From Candidatus Cloacimonadales bacterium (GTDB taxonomy: Bacteria; Cloacimonadota; Cloacimonadia; Cloacimonadales; JAIOQZ01): 64,000 nucleotides of DNA. The notes beneath the pieces were generated by a model that was given only the letters and a program-made list of their open reading frames with translations, did not search any database and was not told the origin of the DNA. The stretch lies in NCBI GenBank assembly GCA_963665815.1, contig OY762463.1:3488001-3552000 (forward strand), read 5' to 3'. The translations under genes and the position numbers were made by a program. The stretch's first letter is position 1; every line of letters begins with the position of its first letter. Shown here in pieces: positions 56,124-63,542 of this stretch.

Positions 56124-57055
56124 TTCAGGATATCTATAAACATGAATTTCATAATCCCGTTGTGACTATGGGGACATTTGATGGTGTTCATAAAGGACAT
56201 CAACATCTTCTTGAACAGGTAAAAATGCATGCTGACAAAATTAACGGAAATTCTATTGCAATTACTTATTATCATCATCCTCTTGAAACACTTAATAAAG
56301 TTACATTTCCTTATCTGCTCACAGAAAAATCCAGAAAAGAAGCACTACTGAAGTCCTATGGAATTGATAAAGTGTTTTTCCTTAACTTCACAAAAGAAAT
56401 GGCTGGAATGACTGCATATGACTTCCTGAGGGATATCCTGATCAAACATATTAATCCAAAAGTTATTGTTGCAGGTTATGACACTCACTTTGGATTGAAC
56501 AGAGAAGGCAATTACGATTTTTTGAAAAAACATGAAGCTGACTTTAACTACAATGCTGAAATAGTAGAACAGTTTTGTGTGAATAAGGAAGTCGCAAGCA
56601 GCAGTAATATAAGAGAGCATATAAGAACAGGGGATATGGAATCTGCCAAAGCTTTACTCGGACGTTACTATACTCTTGACGGTATTGTTGTTCATGGCAT
56701 GAGTCTGGGGCGTGAGCTTGGTTTCCCAACAATCAATATTCATCCTGAAGATGACATGAAACTGATCCCGCATACAGGTATCTATTTTACCAAAGTGAGA
56801 TTCTCAGATAAGGAATTCTTTGCTCTGGCAAACATTGGCTATTCTCCAACAATTAAACATACCGGAATAGTTGAACTCGAAGCTTATCTTCTTGATTTTT
56901 CAGGAGATCTTTATGATAAAAATGTTGAGATAAGTTTTTTGAAAAGACTCAGAGATGAAATTGAGTTTAAAAACCAGGATGAATTAATTGACCAGATTAA
57001 ACTTGATGTTGTTGAAGCAAGAAAGTTAATTGCTGAGATTAATCGTCATAACTGA
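56120..57055 (+). CDS. ribF: Riboflavin kinase/FAD synthetase
   Basis: GTFDGVHKGH, SSSNIR, GRELGFPTIN, DLYDK, LRDEIEF. Confidence 0.97.
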   Translation: MIQDIYKHEFHNPVVTMGTFDGVHKGHQHLLEQVKMHADKINGNSIAITYYHHPLETLNKVTFPYLLTEKSRKEALLKSYGIDKVFFLNFTKEMAGMTAYDFLRDILIKHINPKVIVAGYDTHFGLNREGNYDFLKKHEADFNYNAEIVEQFCVNKEVASSSNIREHIRTGDMESAKALLGRYYTLDGIVVHGMSLGRELGFPTINIHPEDDMKLIPHTGIYFTKVRFSDKEFFALANIGYSPTIKHTGIVELEAYLLDFSGDLYDKNVEISFLKRLRDEIEFKNQDELIDQIKLDVVEARKLIAEINRHN

Positions 57056-57347
57056 AAAAGAAAAGTACAGCTCCCCATAAACATTGCAGAAACGAATATT
57101 TTCTTCTACAATCTTTAAACATTCTATACATACCCCGAGGTGAATAAATATTCACATTGTTTTGTCTCTCAAGATTTATTTTACGCTGATAAATCTCTGT
57201 TCTCGTAGACCACTCAATAGCTCCATCTTCTCCATGTTTATAGGGAATATAACCTTGGTCAATATACGCTTTTTTTTCTGCCGGATTCATTCTTACATCT
57301 TTGGGGTCAAGAATAATTATATCATCATGTTTCTTCTGAGGAGACAT
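57039..57347 (-). CDS. Hypothetical protein
   Basis: 102-aa ORF with GGAG RBS and upstream TTGACA-N16-TACATT; 3' end overlaps ribF convergently. Confidence 0.6.
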   Translation of the reverse strand: MSPQKKHDDIIILDPKDVRMNPAEKKAYIDQGYIPYKHGEDGAIEWSTRTEIYQRKINLERQNNVNIYSPRGMYRMFKDCRRKYSFLQCLWGAVLFFFSYDD

Positions 57348-57496: not shown

Positions 57497-57526
57497 CAAA
57501 GAGTCCATCAAAATTCGATGGACTCT
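57497..57526 (-). terminator. Hairpin terminator after trxA
   Basis: AGAGTCCATC/GATGGACTCT 10-bp stem. Confidence 0.7.
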
Positions 57527-57553: not shown

Positions 57554-57901
57554 TTATAACAGTATGCTATCTATTGATGATTTTAGCTGTTCCTTAGGTA
57601 ACGCACCCATTGCCATCTGAGGTTTCCCTTCTTTAGGAATGAACAACAAAGATGGGATACTTCTTATTCCAAAAGCCCCGGCAAGTTCCTGCTGTTCCTC
57701 AGTATTTACCTTAAATATGTCGATTTTACCTTCATACTCCTGAGATAATTCCTCAAGTACAGGAGCTATCATTTTGCAAGGTCCGCACCAGTCTGCATAA
57801 AAATCGATTAAACATGGTTTTTCACCAATGAATTTCCAGTCTTCGCTATTCTCATAATCAAATATCTTTTTGATGAATGTTTCTTTTGTTAAGTGTTCCA
57901 T
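57554..57901 (-). CDS. trxA: Thioredoxin
   Basis: DFYADWCGPCK, IRSIP; no signal peptide. Confidence 0.95.
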   Translation of the reverse strand: MEHLTKETFIKKIFDYENSEDWKFIGEKPCLIDFYADWCGPCKMIAPVLEELSQEYEGKIDIFKVNTEEQQELAGAFGIRSIPSLLFIPKEGKPQMAMGALPKEQLKSSIDSILL

Positions 57902-57929: not shown

Positions 57930-57957
57930 ATTATAACTCTAAACTTGATAATGTCAA
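57930..57957 (-). promoter_or_regulatory. Sigma70 promoter of trxA
   Basis: TTGACA-N16-TATAAT. Confidence 0.8.
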
Positions 57958-58984: not shown

Positions 58985-60115
58985 TTACCAGATATACAAG
59001 ATACTTACAGTATGAGTTTGTGTATCATCCAATTCAGAATAATTTTCCATACTGAAATTGTAGTTAAGGTAAGTGGAATTATTCAGAAATTTAAATCTTA
59101 AACCACCATGAAGCTCATTTTCAGTTTCAATGTTTACACCATAAAAGTATCTGTATTCAGTGTGAAGCGTTAGTAATGTTATGGGGTACTCAACTTTAAG
59201 CTTAATGTATCCCTGCTCATCTACAGTATAATACTTAGTACCTGCCTGAATAAGTGCCAGATCATTATCATCTGTATAGAACAGGTTTCGCTGCAGGATT
59301 GTTTCGATAAATGATGTTCCCCAGAGCAGTTCATCATCTTCCTTAATCATGCGAGTCTGGAATCTGTTTACGGAAAGCCAGTCCTGACTGAGCTTAAACA
59401 GATGTCTCACATTAAAATATCCATGGATTCTATTGTTTTCATAGCCATCTGAAACATCGTATATCGCCGAGACAGTGCTCTTGAGAAAATGCTGATGATT
59501 GAAGCTCAAGAAAAGCTCTGCTCCAAGCTCGTTCATAATATAGTTATAATCTGAGTTGTCATTTAAATCATTGAATGACTGAATACGGAAAAAAGGTTTC
59601 AGTTTCTCATGTTTAATGTACTGCATCTTCATGTCGATAAGCTGATCACTTTCTATATGTTCATCATTCTCAAGTGCAAGACGACGCATATCTAAGTTCA
59701 TATCCAAGCTGACAGTTTCTCTGAAATTACTGCTCAAGCTGAATCCGCCATACAATTGATTTTCCTGTTTCATTGCTTCAGGAATACCGCTGATATGGAT
59801 TTCCTTGTTATTATCAAAATAACCTTCTGCACCCACATAAGCGCTGAAAGAAAATATTTTGGAATATCTGGACAAAGCAACTGTGTTTTTCAGATAGTTA
59901 TTATAGTATGATCCATTAAATTCATCATTAGCATTGTATTTCAATAATGTAACATTACTAATATTAATGGATTTATATTTTAATTTTGCATAATTCTCAA
60001 CTCTCATGATAGAATCATCATTGTCAGAGGAGTTATATTCAATTTTCACCTGATTCTGAAACCCTGAAAGAAGGAATGGCATAATGATGATCAGTATTAT
60101 AAGTATTTTTCTCAT
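58985..60115 (-). CDS. Putative outer-membrane beta-barrel protein
   Basis: Signal peptide, alternating amphipathic strands rich in Tyr/Phe/Asn, C-terminal THTVSILYIW (BAM-type terminal aromatic). Confidence 0.7.
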   Translation of the reverse strand: MRKILIILIIIMPFLLSGFQNQVKIEYNSSDNDDSIMRVENYAKLKYKSINISNVTLLKYNANDEFNGSYYNNYLKNTVALSRYSKIFSFSAYVGAEGYFDNNKEIHISGIPEAMKQENQLYGGFSLSSNFRETVSLDMNLDMRRLALENDEHIESDQLIDMKMQYIKHEKLKPFFRIQSFNDLNDNSDYNYIMNELGAELFLSFNHQHFLKSTVSAIYDVSDGYENNRIHGYFNVRHLFKLSQDWLSVNRFQTRMIKEDDELLWGTSFIETILQRNLFYTDDNDLALIQAGTKYYTVDEQGYIKLKVEYPITLLTLHTEYRYFYGVNIETENELHGGLRFKFLNNSTYLNYNFSMENYSELDDTQTHTVSILYIW

Positions 60116-60357
60116 CTTATAGCCTCCTCAGGACATTTTGTCACACAATCACCGCATTGCTTGCATTTCGACTGGATTATTGAAGCTTTCCCGTTTGTAA
60201 TTACAATTGCATCATGGGGACAGGCATCTCTGCACTTTCCACAGGATATACATGCATCCTTGTCTATGGAATATTCAAATGATGTTGCTTTTTTACAACC
60301 TGCAAAAACAGCGAACACGAATGAAAGAGCTAAGAATATATAGAGGGCTTTTCTCAT
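60112..60357 (-). CDS. Lipoprotein 2x[4Fe-4S] ferredoxin
   Basis: MRKALYIFLALSFVFAVFAG-C lipobox; CISCGKCRDACP and CKQCGDCVTKCP; ATGA overlaps on both sides support start 60357. Confidence 0.88.
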   Translation of the reverse strand: MRKALYIFLALSFVFAVFAGCKKATSFEYSIDKDACISCGKCRDACPHDAIVITNGKASIIQSKCKQCGDCVTKCPEEAIR

Positions 60358-60599
60358 TTTATTGCTCCGAATGTACATGTTGTAAGACAGAGTTTACAGT
60401 TGATGCATTTCTCTGTGTCAATCACAGCTTTGCCTTCTGATACTGTTATTGCCTTTACCGGGCATACTGTCTGGCAGTCTCCACATCCGGCACAGTCTGA
60501 CTGTATAACGATCGGTTTTTTATCTTCAGATTTCGCATTACCTGCAAAAACGATGAAAACCAGAGAGAGTAAAAATATTATTATAAATGTTTTCTTCAT
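60354..60599 (-). CDS. Signal-peptide-bearing 2x[4Fe-4S] ferredoxin
   Basis: MKKTFIIIFLLSLVFIVFAGNA; CAGCGDCQTVCP and CINCKLCLTTC. Confidence 0.88.
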   Translation of the reverse strand: MKKTFIIIFLLSLVFIVFAGNAKSEDKKPIVIQSDCAGCGDCQTVCPVKAITVSEGKAVIDTEKCINCKLCLTTCTFGAIK

Positions 60600-60608
60600 A
60601 TTCCCTTC

Positions 60609-62819
60609 CTAATATACGTGAACACCAAGGTGAATAGCATTCCAGCCGCATCTGTTATAGCATGTACCACAAGCATCACATGCTGCCGTATCAATTGTCT
60701 TATAGTTTCCTACATCCGATATTGCATCTTCAGGGCAGAACCTGAGACAGCTGTTACAATCAGCACATTGATTCGGGTTTATGATGTATACAATCTTACC
60801 GGAAACAATATTTGATATTGATCCGTAATTGTTGCTGTCATCTATTGCTTTGATAGCTATGTAATAACGAGTTCCGTTTGAAATTCCATTTACATCGCAG
60901 GTTTGAGTTGTTCCTGCCGCACCTGGTGCCGGAGAACTGGAAAACGGACTTGCATTATCCCAGTTTGCATCTGTTATAGGTGATTGAGAATATCGAATAT
61001 CATAGCTTGCTGCAGTTCCTATATCAGCATCATCTCCGGGGGCAGTCCATGTAACACGTAATCTCCCGTTCAATGCAGCGGATGCCACGATTTGGAGATC
61101 GGTAATGGCTGACGGAGGAGTATCATCGGCTGTTAACTGACCTGATACAATGTTGGATATTCCACTGTAGTTTCCAGCTTCATCAAAAGCTTTAATACCG
61201 AAATAATACAGTGTTCCAACTTCTATGTCAGTTATCTCAAAACTTTCTTGATTACCATTTGCCTGCGGAGTCAAACTGCAGCTGACAGGATCGGCAGAAT
61301 CCCAGTTGGTAGAGTTCAGTTCTGTTGTAGATTTTTTTATCTCATATCCTTCACTTGTTCCAGTGTTACCATCATCACCTGTTGAAGTCCATGTGAGTTC
61401 CATGGAAGCAGGGAGCAGGCTCAGTTGCAAGTCAGTAATATCTGCAGGAGCAAGAGTGTCTGCCACTGTATCCGTAGTGAAAGATACAATATTAGATAAT
61501 CCGGATATGTTATCGGAGTCATCAATTGATTTGATACCTATATAGTATTCAGTATCTGATGTAAGATTTGTAATAAGAAGACTTTCATCAGATCCTGATT
61601 GTGATGGAACATAGTTATGGGGAAACTCTGTCAGGGAATCCCAGTTTTGATCGGTAATATCAGCTTCACTGACTTTTATGATGTATTCCGTAGCTGTCCC
61701 TGTATCACCATTATCTCCCGGAGCAGTCCAGATTATTCTGGCACTGGAAGCTGTAACCAATTCTGTTGCGAGGTCACTGACAGTTGACGGTGGAGTTACA
61801 TCTCCTGTGATAGATGCAACAGCAATATTGGATAGTTCAGATTCATTATCAGACTCATCTACAGCTTTTATGGCAAATTCAAAGCTGATTCCTACTTCAA
61901 GATCATCAATAACGAGGTTTTCAGATATTCCAGCGGTTTGTGGTGAAATAGAATTATTATATTCCTCAGCCAGATCCCAGTCAAAGGGGCTTGTTTGGGA
62001 ATATTTAATAATGTAATGATCCGCTGTTCCTGTCATATCATCATCACCGACAGCAGACCAACTCAGTTCTATTGATTCTTCATTTGATACAGCAGCAAGA
62101 TCGGATATAGCTGCAGGTGCTGTTTCATCAGTGATCAGTCCTGCTATGATGGTAGATCTTTCAACTTCTGTATTTTTATTGCCTGCTTCATCTTCAACTT
62201 GAAGTCTAACGGTTAAAAGGTAATCTGAATTAAGACTGTCAACAACCCATTCGACATGGGTGCCGCCCTGATAATAAGCGTATTCTGCACATGGAATTTC
62301 AACTTCTTCCATATCATCATATTCATCGTCATCAACGTCATCAACGTCATCATCATTGGCCCTTGTATCGGTCATATCATCGAGGTAGGCTGACAGTTTA
62401 TATTTATATGCATAACCTGTCATTCCATCATCTCCCGGAGCAGTAAAAGATATAACTGCTTCGTATGGATTTTCTGAAACAACTTTGAAGTCATTGATAT
62501 CTGCCGGTGCATTAATATCTTTTGCTGTTGTAAAAGCAACTGTACCATCACGACCTTCACAGTCAGCGAAGAGATCAATACATTTCATGCAGCTAATACA
62601 TTTGTCTTTATCAATGTAATATGCTCCGTTTTCATCATCGAGAAGAATGGCATTCTCCGGACATTCAAACATCGTTGTACAATTACCACATTGAGTACAA
62701 TCGGAATATTCAATTCTTGGCTGATTGTTATTTCCGGTGTTTTTATTCACTTTATCAGCACAGAAAAACAGCAGGAATGATACAGCAAGAATTGCTATTA
62801 TCTTAATAGTTTTGATCAT
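60609..62819 (-). CDS. Exported (probable lipoprotein) ferredoxin-(FN3-like)x5-ferredoxin protein
   Basis: Signal peptide ending FFC; N-terminal CTQCGNC/CISCMKC; five repeats with (T/A)P..I.DL...WTAPGDDG..GTA..Y.IK...IKA.D...N.S..SN; C-terminal CADCNSCLRFCP/CDACGTCYNRC. Confidence 0.85.
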   Translation of the reverse strand: MIKTIKIIAILAVSFLLFFCADKVNKNTGNNNQPRIEYSDCTQCGNCTTMFECPENAILLDDENGAYYIDKDKCISCMKCIDLFADCEGRDGTVAFTTAKDINAPADINDFKVVSENPYEAVISFTAPGDDGMTGYAYKYKLSAYLDDMTDTRANDDDVDDVDDDEYDDMEEVEIPCAEYAYYQGGTHVEWVVDSLNSDYLLTVRLQVEDEAGNKNTEVERSTIIAGLITDETAPAAISDLAAVSNEESIELSWSAVGDDDMTGTADHYIIKYSQTSPFDWDLAEEYNNSISPQTAGISENLVIDDLEVGISFEFAIKAVDESDNESELSNIAVASITGDVTPPSTVSDLATELVTASSARIIWTAPGDNGDTGTATEYIIKVSEADITDQNWDSLTEFPHNYVPSQSGSDESLLITNLTSDTEYYIGIKSIDDSDNISGLSNIVSFTTDTVADTLAPADITDLQLSLLPASMELTWTSTGDDGNTGTSEGYEIKKSTTELNSTNWDSADPVSCSLTPQANGNQESFEITDIEVGTLYYFGIKAFDEAGNYSGISNIVSGQLTADDTPPSAITDLQIVASAALNGRLRVTWTAPGDDADIGTAASYDIRYSQSPITDANWDNASPFSSSPAPGAAGTTQTCDVNGISNGTRYYIAIKAIDDSNNYGSISNIVSGKIVYIINPNQCADCNSCLRFCPEDAISDVGNYKTIDTAACDACGTCYNRCGWNAIHLGVHVY

Positions 62820-62831
62820 GAAATAACCTTA

Positions 62832-63542
62832 TTATTTATTTTCTTTTTTCTCAATAACTTTCACAGGACATGCTTTTTCACAAATTCCGCAATCAATGCA
62901 TTTTTCCTGGTCAATTACAGCTTTGCCTTTTTTCATTTCAATGGCACCAACAGGGCATTTTTTTACACAAATTTTACATCCAATACATTCTTTAGCATTT
63001 ACAGAATAGACAATCTTGTCTTTGGGATTTGCAACTTTTGCTTCAGCTTTATCAGCTTCCGGTGCATTCTGGCATGGATGGGTTCCACATGGTGTGTGTT
63101 GTGGTTTATGTGCATCTTTAACTGCTTTGTATTTTTCAGATCGTTTTTTTTGTTTTTCTGTTTCTTCATTGAAAGTTTTTACTTTTGGTTTAATTTTTTT
63201 TGCTTCCAGAAGTTTGTCTGTTGTAAATTCCTTAGATTTATGAGTCGTAACAGTTGCTTTGTCTTCAGTTATTTTTTTGAGGTCAACTGCTTCGGATTTT
63301 GCTTTTGATTTAACAATAGCATTTATGGGGCATTTATTAACACAAATTCCGCATCCAATACATTTATCTTTGTCTATAACAGCTTTCCCGTCTACCATTT
63401 TAATTGCATCAACAGGACAATCTTTTATGCAAAGTTTACATCCTATACAGTCATCTTTCTTCACTTCATATTTGGTTTTTACAGTTGCGAAAACTGCAAA
63501 TGTCAGTACTAACATTAAAGCAATGGTAAGTAGTTTCTTCAT
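62832..63542 (-). CDS. Signal-peptide-bearing protein with two 2x[4Fe-4S] ferredoxin domains and a Lys-rich linker
   Basis: Start ATG 63542 (AGGAG RBS) MKKLLTIALMLVLTFAVFA; four CxxCxxCxxxCP motifs. Confidence 0.88.
   Translation of the reverse strand: MKKLLTIALMLVLTFAVFATVKTKYEVKKDDCIGCKLCIKDCPVDAIKMVDGKAVIDKDKCIGCGICVNKCPINAIVKSKAKSEAVDLKKITEDKATVTTHKSKEFTTDKLLEAKKIKPKVKTFNEETEKQKKRSEKYKAVKDAHKPQHTPCGTHPCQNAPEADKAEAKVANPKDKIVYSVNAKECIGCKICVKKCPVGAIEMKKGKAVIDQEKCIDCGICEKACPVKVIEKKENK

Follow-up and report, generated by a model that had tools for sequence, protein, structure and literature searches.

We analysed a window of 64,000 nucleotides from a Candidatus Cloacimonadales bacterium (contig OY762463.1, positions 3,488,001 to 3,552,000), whose genome is a single contig of 3.96 Mb with 98.66% completeness, and we focused on a gene cluster near the end of this window that encodes four ferredoxins with predicted export leaders, here called FdA to FdD (Table 1). 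The genes for FdA, FdB, FdC, FdD, a beta-barrel protein and a DsbD_2-family protein follow each other on one strand with gaps of at most 12 nt, and a thioredoxin gene comes after a short gap that holds a promoter match. The stop codon of FdD and the start of the barrel gene overlap (ATGA), and Shine-Dalgarno-like sequences precede the chosen starts of FdA (AGGAG, 9 nt upstream of the ATG), of FdC and FdD, of the gene next after the ferredoxins and of the thioredoxin gene. Family searches found no catalytic subunit of the molybdopterin, haem or dehalogenase type encoded in the cluster. A sequence-only reading of this DNA had drawn attention to the four ferredoxins, and the N-termini that it quoted are exact, belong to open reading frames (ORFs) at the coordinates of Table 1, and are indeed short, hydrophobic and devoid of a twin arginine. 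It missed the context that gives the finding its meaning, namely the barrel, the DsbD_2 protein, the NapH-like partner and the homologues in other bacteria that carry leaders for twin-arginine translocation (Tat).

Table 1. Genes and signals of the ferredoxin cluster (positions in the window; aa, amino acids).
Feature	Position	Strand	Basis and remarks
NapH/MauN-like polytopic membrane Fe-S protein, 266 aa	63629..64000, continues beyond the window to G000:C1:3552430	+	divergent; Pfam Fer4_5
FdA, leader and two 2x[4Fe-4S] dicluster domains, 236 aa from the MKKLL start	62832..63542	-	Fer4, motifs
FdB, putative lipoprotein, dicluster-Fn3 stalk-dicluster, 736 aa	60609..62819	-	Fer4, fn3
FdC, 81-aa ferredoxin, leader of signal-peptidase-I type	60354..60599	-	Fer4
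FdD, 81-aa lipoprotein ferredoxin from the MRKAL start, leader ends FAGC	60112..60357	-	Fer4
Predicted outer-membrane beta-barrel, 376 aa	58985..60115	-	predicted structure; without Pfam or NCBIfam family
DsbD_2-family six-helix membrane protein, 329 aa	57990..58979	-	PF13386
Sigma-70-like promoter match, 12/12, before the thioredoxin gene	57930-57957		consensus scan
Leaderless thioredoxin (WCGPC), last gene of the cluster	57554..57901	-	TIGR01068, 7e-33, above cut-off
Terminator-like hairpin, 12-bp stem, closes the cluster	57500..57526	-	consensus scan only

All four proteins show the clostridial-type 2x[4Fe-4S] ferredoxin fold, with two CxxCxxCxxxC(P) motifs per domain, and match Pfam Fer4 far above its cut-offs (E-values of 8e-31 for FdA, 2e-11 for FdB, 6e-13 for FdC and 8e-16 for FdD). 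FdA contains four CxxCxxCxxxC motifs, with a Lys-rich linker between its two dicluster domains, and FdC and FdD are minimal dicluster ferredoxins of 8 Cys. FdB bears a dicluster domain at either end of a fibronectin type III (Fn3) stalk, in which Pfam counts four fn3 stretches and we counted by eye five repeats of the W-x-A-x-G-D-D type. The net charge of the mature proteins would be +18 for FdA, +1 for FdC, +2 for FdD and -93 for FdB, and in their predicted mature forms the four proteins differ from the acidic cytoplasmic ferredoxins.

The leaders share one build, M-(K/R)-K followed by 15 to 18 uncharged residues, with the n-regions MKK, MIKTIK, MKK and MRK and a twin arginine in none of the four. 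By a heuristic reading of hydropathy and charge, FdA and FdC fit the signal-peptidase-I pattern of the general secretory (Sec) pathway, with a positive n-region, an h-region of 10 to 18 residues and small residues at -3/-1. The leader of FdD ends in FAGC and that of FdB in LFFC, each a lipobox with the invariant Cys, and the genome encodes LspA (E 4e-39). Five matches to the Omp85 family (Omp85/BamA) were also found, and LspA and Omp85 together therefore indicate a diderm cell with a lipoprotein pathway. The barrel protein has a Sec-type leader of its own that is built like those of the ferredoxins. In FdA, FdC and FdD, Lys-rich residues follow directly after the hydrophobic segment.

We asked how common such leaders are in the genome and among relatives. 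The four-Cys motif occurs in 40 ORFs, 8 of which were flagged as leader-like by a crude test; 5 of these 8 read as leaders on otherwise soluble proteins, namely FdA to FdD and one DUF362 protein, and about 24% of the approximately 3126 ORFs of the genome pass a comparably liberal leader test. The leader pattern exceeds chance, and its conservation is a stronger argument for the leaders than this genome-wide count. We took 20-kb stretches around ferredoxin matches from 19 relatives and one locus of a public metagenome-assembled genome, and a leader of this kind was present on every small ferredoxin of the relatives' clusters. We aligned 18 FdD and 17 FdC orthologues (L021, from a near-duplicate genus, was omitted from both alignments and L035, whose start is unclear, from that of FdC). 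The lipobox Cys (Cys21) and the 8 cluster Cys of FdD are invariant in 18/18 sequences, as are the 8 Cys of FdC in 17/17 and the CP..AI fold residues in both families. The FdB-type orthologues range from 321 to 1058 aa, with a varying number of Fn3 units; in all 13 the hydrophobic region terminates in a Cys, and 12 of them have an acidic residue at +2 or +3, an arrangement that presumably resembles the surface-export signal of Bacteroidota lipoproteins. Full-length relatives of FdB were found only in Cloacimonadota. The DUF362 protein mentioned above, which is unrelated to the cluster, carries an inserted 2x Fer4 unit and a Sec-type leader starting MKKYITYLILILSAFAIYAG (G000:C1:2205257-2206348; L036:7258-8349, minus strand); DUF362 proteins elsewhere often have Tat signals.

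By the textbook rule, Fe-S proteins leave the cytoplasm only folded, through Tat. We searched the genome with the Pfam models of TatA and TatC and obtained no match, in searches that were positive in 11 of 14 control genomes; tblastn with the TatA and TatC of two phylum members did not find them in the genome either. Within the phylum, TatC was present in 3 of 151 genomes (each at least 90% complete). The sequence-only reading had proposed a search for tatABC, and this result, from an almost complete one-contig genome, strengthens its claim that the leaders are of the Sec and lipoprotein type rather than the Tat type, a claim that our reading of the leaders upholds as well. Because neither TatA nor TatC was found, Tat-dependent export, which it had named as a finding that would speak against it, has no machinery to rest on. 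We consider Sec export of the ferredoxins, taken by itself, to be very probable. In the three TatC-bearing genomes the best ferredoxin matches have neither a leader nor RR, and these genomes are therefore uninformative as a contrast. For one of the three TatC genes (L058, G109:C3:6500-9352), the 9.3-kb contig that carries it has ORFs of GC-rich appearance, judged by eye from their amino-acid composition, against the roughly 36% GC of the lineage; this contig may be assembly contamination.

We then compared the cluster ferredoxins with homologues in other bacteria. The FdD alignment profile was searched against 1.84 billion representative proteins and the 150 best matches were sorted by leader. 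Sec-like leaders were present on 40 of them, many being FdA-like proteins of 150-255 aa with four motifs. Another 20 start with a canonical RRxF(L/I/F), followed about 20-30 residues on by a lipobox Cys and then by 5-10 ferredoxin motifs; their database names go no further than '4Fe-4S binding protein', 'ferredoxin' or the like. By hhalign, FdD aligns to the N-terminal part of these Tat-type lipoproteins with a probability of 99.4% and an E-value of 2.4e-21, and the end of the hydrophobic segment, the lipobox Cys and the first dicluster domain fall in register. The leaders themselves are clearly separated: the lipid Cys stands at position 19-23 in FdD (n = 18) and at 28-49 in the Tat-type proteins (n = 9), the maximal hydropathy over 10 residues is 2.69-4.27 against 1.76-2.57 without overlap, and RR occurs in 1/18 FdD leaders (directly after Met1 and non-consensus) against 9/9. 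The S/T-R-R-x-F-L-K motif in a long, weakly hydrophobic leader, as expected of Tat substrates, is absent from the cluster ferredoxins. The contrast between the predicted FdD and Tat-type leaders is the one expected between Sec and Tat signals.

Three Tat-type proteins were used to scan metagenomes, which gave 80 loci; among the best ten, three were too short and one held a different, leaderless protein. In all six informative loci, the polyferredoxin gene stands beside a Fer4_5 NapH-like gene, related to the NapH-like protein of the window (tblastn E 2e-6 to 2e-16, with Pfam confirmation in two), and beside an ORF of 391-487 aa with a leader by ORF scan and an outer-membrane-type end like R-(I/V)-x-F. 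DsbD_2 had no match among the 80 loci, most of which are short. As Sec-type and Tat-type homologues sit in like clusters, the question of how these ferredoxins are exported and loaded is directly testable with a few small proteins. We also observed in 5/6 informative loci a small three-Cys protein with a leader (118-130 aa and without Pfam family in L062, L066, L067 and L068), and in one Tat-type metagenome locus a DUF4405 membrane protein.

The gene downstream of FdD encodes a 376-aa protein without a known family. An AlphaFold2 model built from 18 sequences (pLDDT 86.2, pTM 0.74) predicts a plug-less barrel of 20-22 long strands, joined by very short loops. By fold it comes closest to the 22-strand barrels of TonB-dependent receptors (TMq 0.55-0.57 at 8% identity), in which a plug domain is enclosed, and a query of the ESM Atlas returned unnamed clusters only. 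Of 19 family members, 14 end in F, Y or W and four others carry Phe at -2 or -3, and only the L019 member has neither. With the modelled closed barrel, the Sec leader and the C-terminal aromatic signal, the protein is predicted to be an outer-membrane barrel, and its lumen, as estimated from the strand count, would be about 25 Å wide, near the size of a 6-kDa ferredoxin.

The trio of a small ferredoxin, a lipoprotein ferredoxin and the barrel recurs across Cloacimonadota, the order FdC-FdD-barrel of about 400 aa being present in 20 loci (L010, L015-L024, L027-L032, L034, L035 and L040). Profile searches of 101 phylum genomes matched the barrel in 50, DsbD_2 in 41 and both in 35, and in 32 of these 35 the two genes are adjacent; in G081 they lie on different contigs. 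DsbD_2 occurs without a barrel match in six genomes; in one of these, G015, it directly follows the genes of a NapH-like protein and a leader-bearing four-cluster ferredoxin. In one sister genus (G003, G005 and G006), DsbD_2 forms part of a longer open frame of 454-461 aa (L045 = G003:C1:3408000-3420000) and in two of the three genomes it is far from the ferredoxin-barrel cluster.

On the other side of the cluster, divergent from FdA, lies the gene of the polytopic NapH-like protein, which matches Pfam Fer4_5 twice (E 1.7e-16) and aligns over nearly its full length to the NapH/MauN model TIGR02163 (3.1e-14). Counting the window's own locus and leaving out the duplicate L009, a NapH-like gene was present in 10 loci, and in all 10 it stands beside the gene of a leader-bearing ferredoxin. 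In L024, L025 and L032, the NapH-like and ferredoxin genes are apart from the barrel cluster and are preceded by a gene for a 482-aa protein that resembles a response regulator and by two genes of about 550 aa, which suggests two-component control of these genes.

The DsbD_2 protein matches PF13386 with an E-value of 5.8e-19 (69.2 bits against a cut-off of 24.9) and shows the Cys in helices 1 and 4 that are typical of the DsbD/CcdA superfamily. The residues invariant in 13/13 sequences are C20, C24 and P26 of helix 1, C105, which lies in a loop rich in Lys, and the C129-P130 pair of helix 4, and a Cys-free alpha/beta domain of about 125 aa forms the C-terminus. Its structure model is of moderate quality (pLDDT 73.9) and had no Foldseek match in the PDB at E <= 0.001; the ESM Atlas returned its own Cloacimonadota cluster of 248 members. 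By VIA-align the best row was RnfA (Z 8.4), with CcdA at Z 6.3, both in the noise range for helical bundles, and the C-terminal domain matched P-loop-kinase-like alpha/beta folds at Z 6-7; fold matches this weak do not support a functional assignment. In the RnfA/RnfE and NqrD/NqrE pairs, Cys residues of the helices carry an intramembrane [2Fe-2S] cluster. DsbD_2 could therefore carry electrons itself instead of exporting thiol reductant, which we note as a lead only. A role in cytochrome c biogenesis, as suggested by the Pfam name, was rejected, as the cytochrome c maturation family PF01578 has no match in the genome.

Outside the cluster, the genome encodes one canonical DsbD_TM protein, which together with DsbD_2 makes two reductive DsbD-type proteins, and neither DsbB nor VKOR was found in it. 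In the envelope, the recognised thiol pathways are reductive only. SufBD had no match in the genome and was present in all 14 control genomes; the single Fe-S scaffold found is a leaderless IscU-like protein of 206 aa (at 605655), beside a gene that we read by eye as a cysteine desulfurase.

Taken together, we propose that FdA to FdD are extracytoplasmic ferredoxins of a haem-free electron chain of the envelope, exported unfolded by Sec and the lipoprotein localization (Lol) pathway and loaded with clusters after export, a reading to which we give about an even chance. That they bind real clusters at all is somewhat more probable than that. We infer export, cluster content and electron flow alike from sequence. 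The very hydrophobic leaders would send the unfolded apoproteins through Sec, possibly co-translationally, after which FdA and FdC would be soluble in the periplasm, FdD would reach the outer membrane as a lipid-anchored protein, and FdB would probably be displayed at the cell surface. The [4Fe-4S] clusters would then be inserted in a reducing, anoxic periplasm rich in Fe(II) and sulfide, where DsbD_2, fed by thioredoxin, may keep the 8-18 Cys per protein reduced or may itself carry electrons. Clostridial apoferredoxin has long been reconstituted chemically from Fe(II), sulfide and thiol, and the anoxic sulfidic habitat and the thiol-reducing DsbD_2 could be the source of these ingredients. 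In such a chain the NapH-like protein would hand electrons to FdA and FdC, from which they would reach FdD, placed at the wide plug-less barrel or inside it, and then FdB with its two heads on the Fn3 stalk; the end point would be an acceptor outside the cell or a partner cell, and the flow could also run the opposite way. Assembly of the clusters after export, which the sequence-only reading had offered as one option, has thus become the leading reading and stays conditional.

Several points weigh against this proposal. The signal-peptide calls are a heuristic reading of hydropathy and charge, and the topology of DsbD_2, by which its N-terminus and Cys-free C-terminal domain would be periplasmic and C105 cytoplasmic, is a manual positive-inside reading. 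No periplasmic Fe-S assembly factor was identified in the genome. Low-potential clusters outside the cytoplasm would be fragile, and an extended Fn3 stalk of FdB would set its ferredoxin heads too far apart for direct electron transfer. The NapH-like protein scores far below the family cut-offs (53.1 bits against 213 for TIGR02163 and 50.4 bits against 234 for the NapH model NF007013), so it is NapH-like and not a member of the NapH/MauN family. The barrel occurs without a DsbD_2 match in 15/50 genomes, where its matches are mostly weaker and mostly from one small-genome family; G025 has the full ferredoxin-barrel cluster and L040, from that small-genome family, the FdC-FdD-barrel trio, each without DsbD_2, and in G003 and G006 DsbD_2 is unlinked to the barrel. 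The thioredoxin was rejected as a conserved member of the cluster, being adjacent only in this genus. Finally, the Cloacimonadota barrel shows no detectable homology to the barrels of the Tat-type modules (hhalign probability 0.9%), and the parallel with these modules is therefore one of gene content only.

A more elaborate version of the proposal joins these elements into an all-ferredoxin conduit across the envelope, in which Sec-exported apo-ferredoxins would be loaded with [4Fe-4S] clusters in the periplasm, a way of maturation that is not known for any Fe-S protein, one or two of the small ferredoxins would sit inside the barrel as a porin-ferredoxin complex, FdB on its acidic Fn3 stalk would bring low-potential electrons to partner cells or minerals, and the whole Sec system would derive from a wider Tat-dependent module of NapH-like protein, barrel and polyferredoxin. 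We put it forward tentatively, as it is rather doubtful in this complete form.

Among the alternatives, the exported Cys-rich folds might bind or scavenge Fe, sulfide, preformed FeS or another thiophilic metal in the periplasm and at the cell surface, whether for nutrient acquisition, for storage, in detoxification or in sensing; the barrel would then serve as the channel of uptake or release. The sequence-only reading had suggested ligands other than Fe-S clusters; its disulfide option is now disfavoured, because neither DsbB nor VKOR was found while two reductive DsbD-type proteins are present, and another metal or the scavenging of sulfide or FeS still stands. Such a role would agree with the lack of any periplasmic Fe-S assembly machinery in our searches, with the wider clan of the Pfam family of DsbD_2, which includes metal transporters, and with the metal-related genes, read by eye, that neighbour the cluster in some relatives (Fur/FeoB in L023, a P-type ATPase in L022 and L028). 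These neighbours, however, occur in only 3 of about 20 loci, the redox-type NapH-like protein adjoins a leader-bearing ferredoxin in every locus that has it, and the fold residues beyond the Cys are kept as in redox ferredoxins. Moreover, the Tat-type homologues must leave the cytoplasm folded and loaded, which indicates a cofactor-dependent function. We regard metal or sulfide handling as unlikely.

Another possibility is a periplasmic redox module like NapGH that feeds an unlinked periplasmic or surface enzyme, with a barrel that admits substrate and without electrons crossing the outer membrane. The pairing of the NapH-like protein with the four-cluster FdA mirrors NapH with NapG, and a quinone is possible as one UbiA-family prenyltransferase is encoded in the genome. 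On the contrary, no catalytic subunit is linked to the cluster in any locus examined, the FdD and barrel genes are translationally coupled, and FdB is built like a stalked surface lipoprotein; such a module is in our view improbable. Less credible still is cytoplasmic loading followed by export of the folded ferredoxins over some non-Tat route yet to be recognised. A second, unrelated Fe-S protein, the DUF362 protein with its two Fer4 motifs, has a Sec-type leader, and the organism would therefore possess some general means of getting Fe-S proteins out of the cytoplasm. However, the cluster has no linked candidate machinery, the leaders are of the classical, highly hydrophobic Sec type, and clostridial-type apoferredoxins are unfolded without their clusters and hence compatible with Sec. 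Finally, uncleaved N-terminal anchors holding cytoplasmic ferredoxin domains loaded by IscS/IscU would require no new biochemistry, and the Lys-rich residues after the hydrophobic segment of FdA, FdC and FdD weaken a simple positive-inside argument against them, but this is very improbable given the lipobox Cys in every aligned FdD and FdB beside an LspA, the Fn3 repeats between the FdB ferredoxin domains, the outer-membrane barrel in the operon, the homology of FdD to Tat-exported lipoproteins with the lipobox in register, and leaders as short (19-23 residues) and built as that of the barrel.

Some further genes were observed around the cluster. A 102-aa ORF lies 3' of the terminator on the minus strand (window 57039-57347); it has no Pfam match and is 87% identical in a sister genome. 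Past the window end, directly after the NapH-like gene, a secreted protein with DUF1573 and a rhodanese-like part is encoded on the minus strand (L015:9511-10308; G000:C1:3552510-3553307), the catalytic Cys of the rhodanese part seemingly missing by eye. It is followed by a B12-binding radical SAM / DUF4080 gene, and this trio is kept in the sister genome. Among relatives, genes read by eye as Fur and FeoB come after the barrel gene at L023:11710-14431, and genes read by eye as a P-type ATPase of the HMA type lie upstream of the cluster at L022:5118-7592 and L028:9874-12326.

A full-text literature search, with most subscription journals outside its scope, returned no description of Sec-exported ferredoxins, of exported Cloacimonadota ferredoxins or of a NapH-barrel-polyferredoxin module, and passages of four papers make no mention of exported ferredoxins (PMC8542988, PMC7382037, PMC4600277, PMC7327174). 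As far as searched, the conserved cluster appears to be undescribed, and so do the Tat-type polyferredoxin modules. If our proposal is true, a Tat-less phylum with exported canonical ferredoxins would break the Tat rule and imply that clusters are inserted outside the cytoplasm. For the cytochrome-free fermenters and syntrophs that live in anaerobic digesters and sediments, it would also open an electron route across the envelope, with a bearing on how they dispose of reducing power, including by direct interspecies electron transfer. The latter is sought in current surveys through multihaem cytochromes and pili only (PMC7382037).

Among known systems, CcdA-ResA and DsbD-CcmG, which export thiol reductant for apocytochrome c, resemble one part of the cluster, with a six-helix protein that carries Cys-Pro in helices 1 and 4, a cytoplasmic thioredoxin as neighbour and exported Cys-rich apoproteins that need to be kept reduced until the cofactor arrives. 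The DsbD_2 protein differs from CcdA and DsbD in belonging to PF13386 and not to DsbD_TM, in having four invariant Cys instead of two and a predicted Cys-free periplasmic domain, and in having no cytochromes c to serve. The Tat-type polyferredoxins are closest to FdD itself and are distinguished from it by longer, less hydrophobic RRxF leaders and by 6-11 ferredoxin motifs in a single chain, with no DsbD_2 found nearby.

The NapGH, NosGH and MauMN systems show a like pairing of a polytopic Fer4_5 protein with C-terminal Cys clusters and an exported four-cluster ferredoxin. According to passages of PMC5449189, the clusters of NapH are cytoplasmic, NapG depends on Tat to reach the periplasm and carries four [4Fe-4S] clusters, and the two together form a quinol dehydrogenase. 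Unlike the Tat-dependent NapG, FdA has a Sec-type leader in a Tat-less genome; its two dicluster domains, of the clostridial type, are joined by a Lys-rich linker, and the best 25 of its 104 NCBIfam matches include no NapG model. In addition, the cluster has no linked enzyme for nitrate, N2O or methylamine.

The MtrB barrel of Shewanella has 26 strands, unlike the barrel of the cluster with its predicted 20-22 or so and no family match. The porin-cytochrome conduits to which MtrB belongs (Shewanella MtrCAB, Geobacter Pcc and PioAB/MtoAB) share a gene logic with the cluster (PMC4245776, PMC4282303), namely neighbouring genes for a periplasmic redox protein, a barrel and a redox lipoprotein with a linked inner-membrane donor. 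Here too the barrel gene stands beside redox genes, but multihaem cytochromes and their maturation system are missing, the redox proteins of the cluster being of the Fer4 type only and the genome being without PF01578. In the cluster, too, electrons may cross the outer membrane. Shewanella DmsAB leaves the cytoplasm folded through Tat and is then handled by type II secretion, with electrons passing via a decahaem cytochrome. The extracellular DMSO reductase DmsEFAB of Shewanella (PMC9048795), whose Fe-S subunit DmsB lies outside the outer membrane, provides a precedent for a ferredoxin-type Fe-S protein that works outside the cytoplasm beside a barrel.

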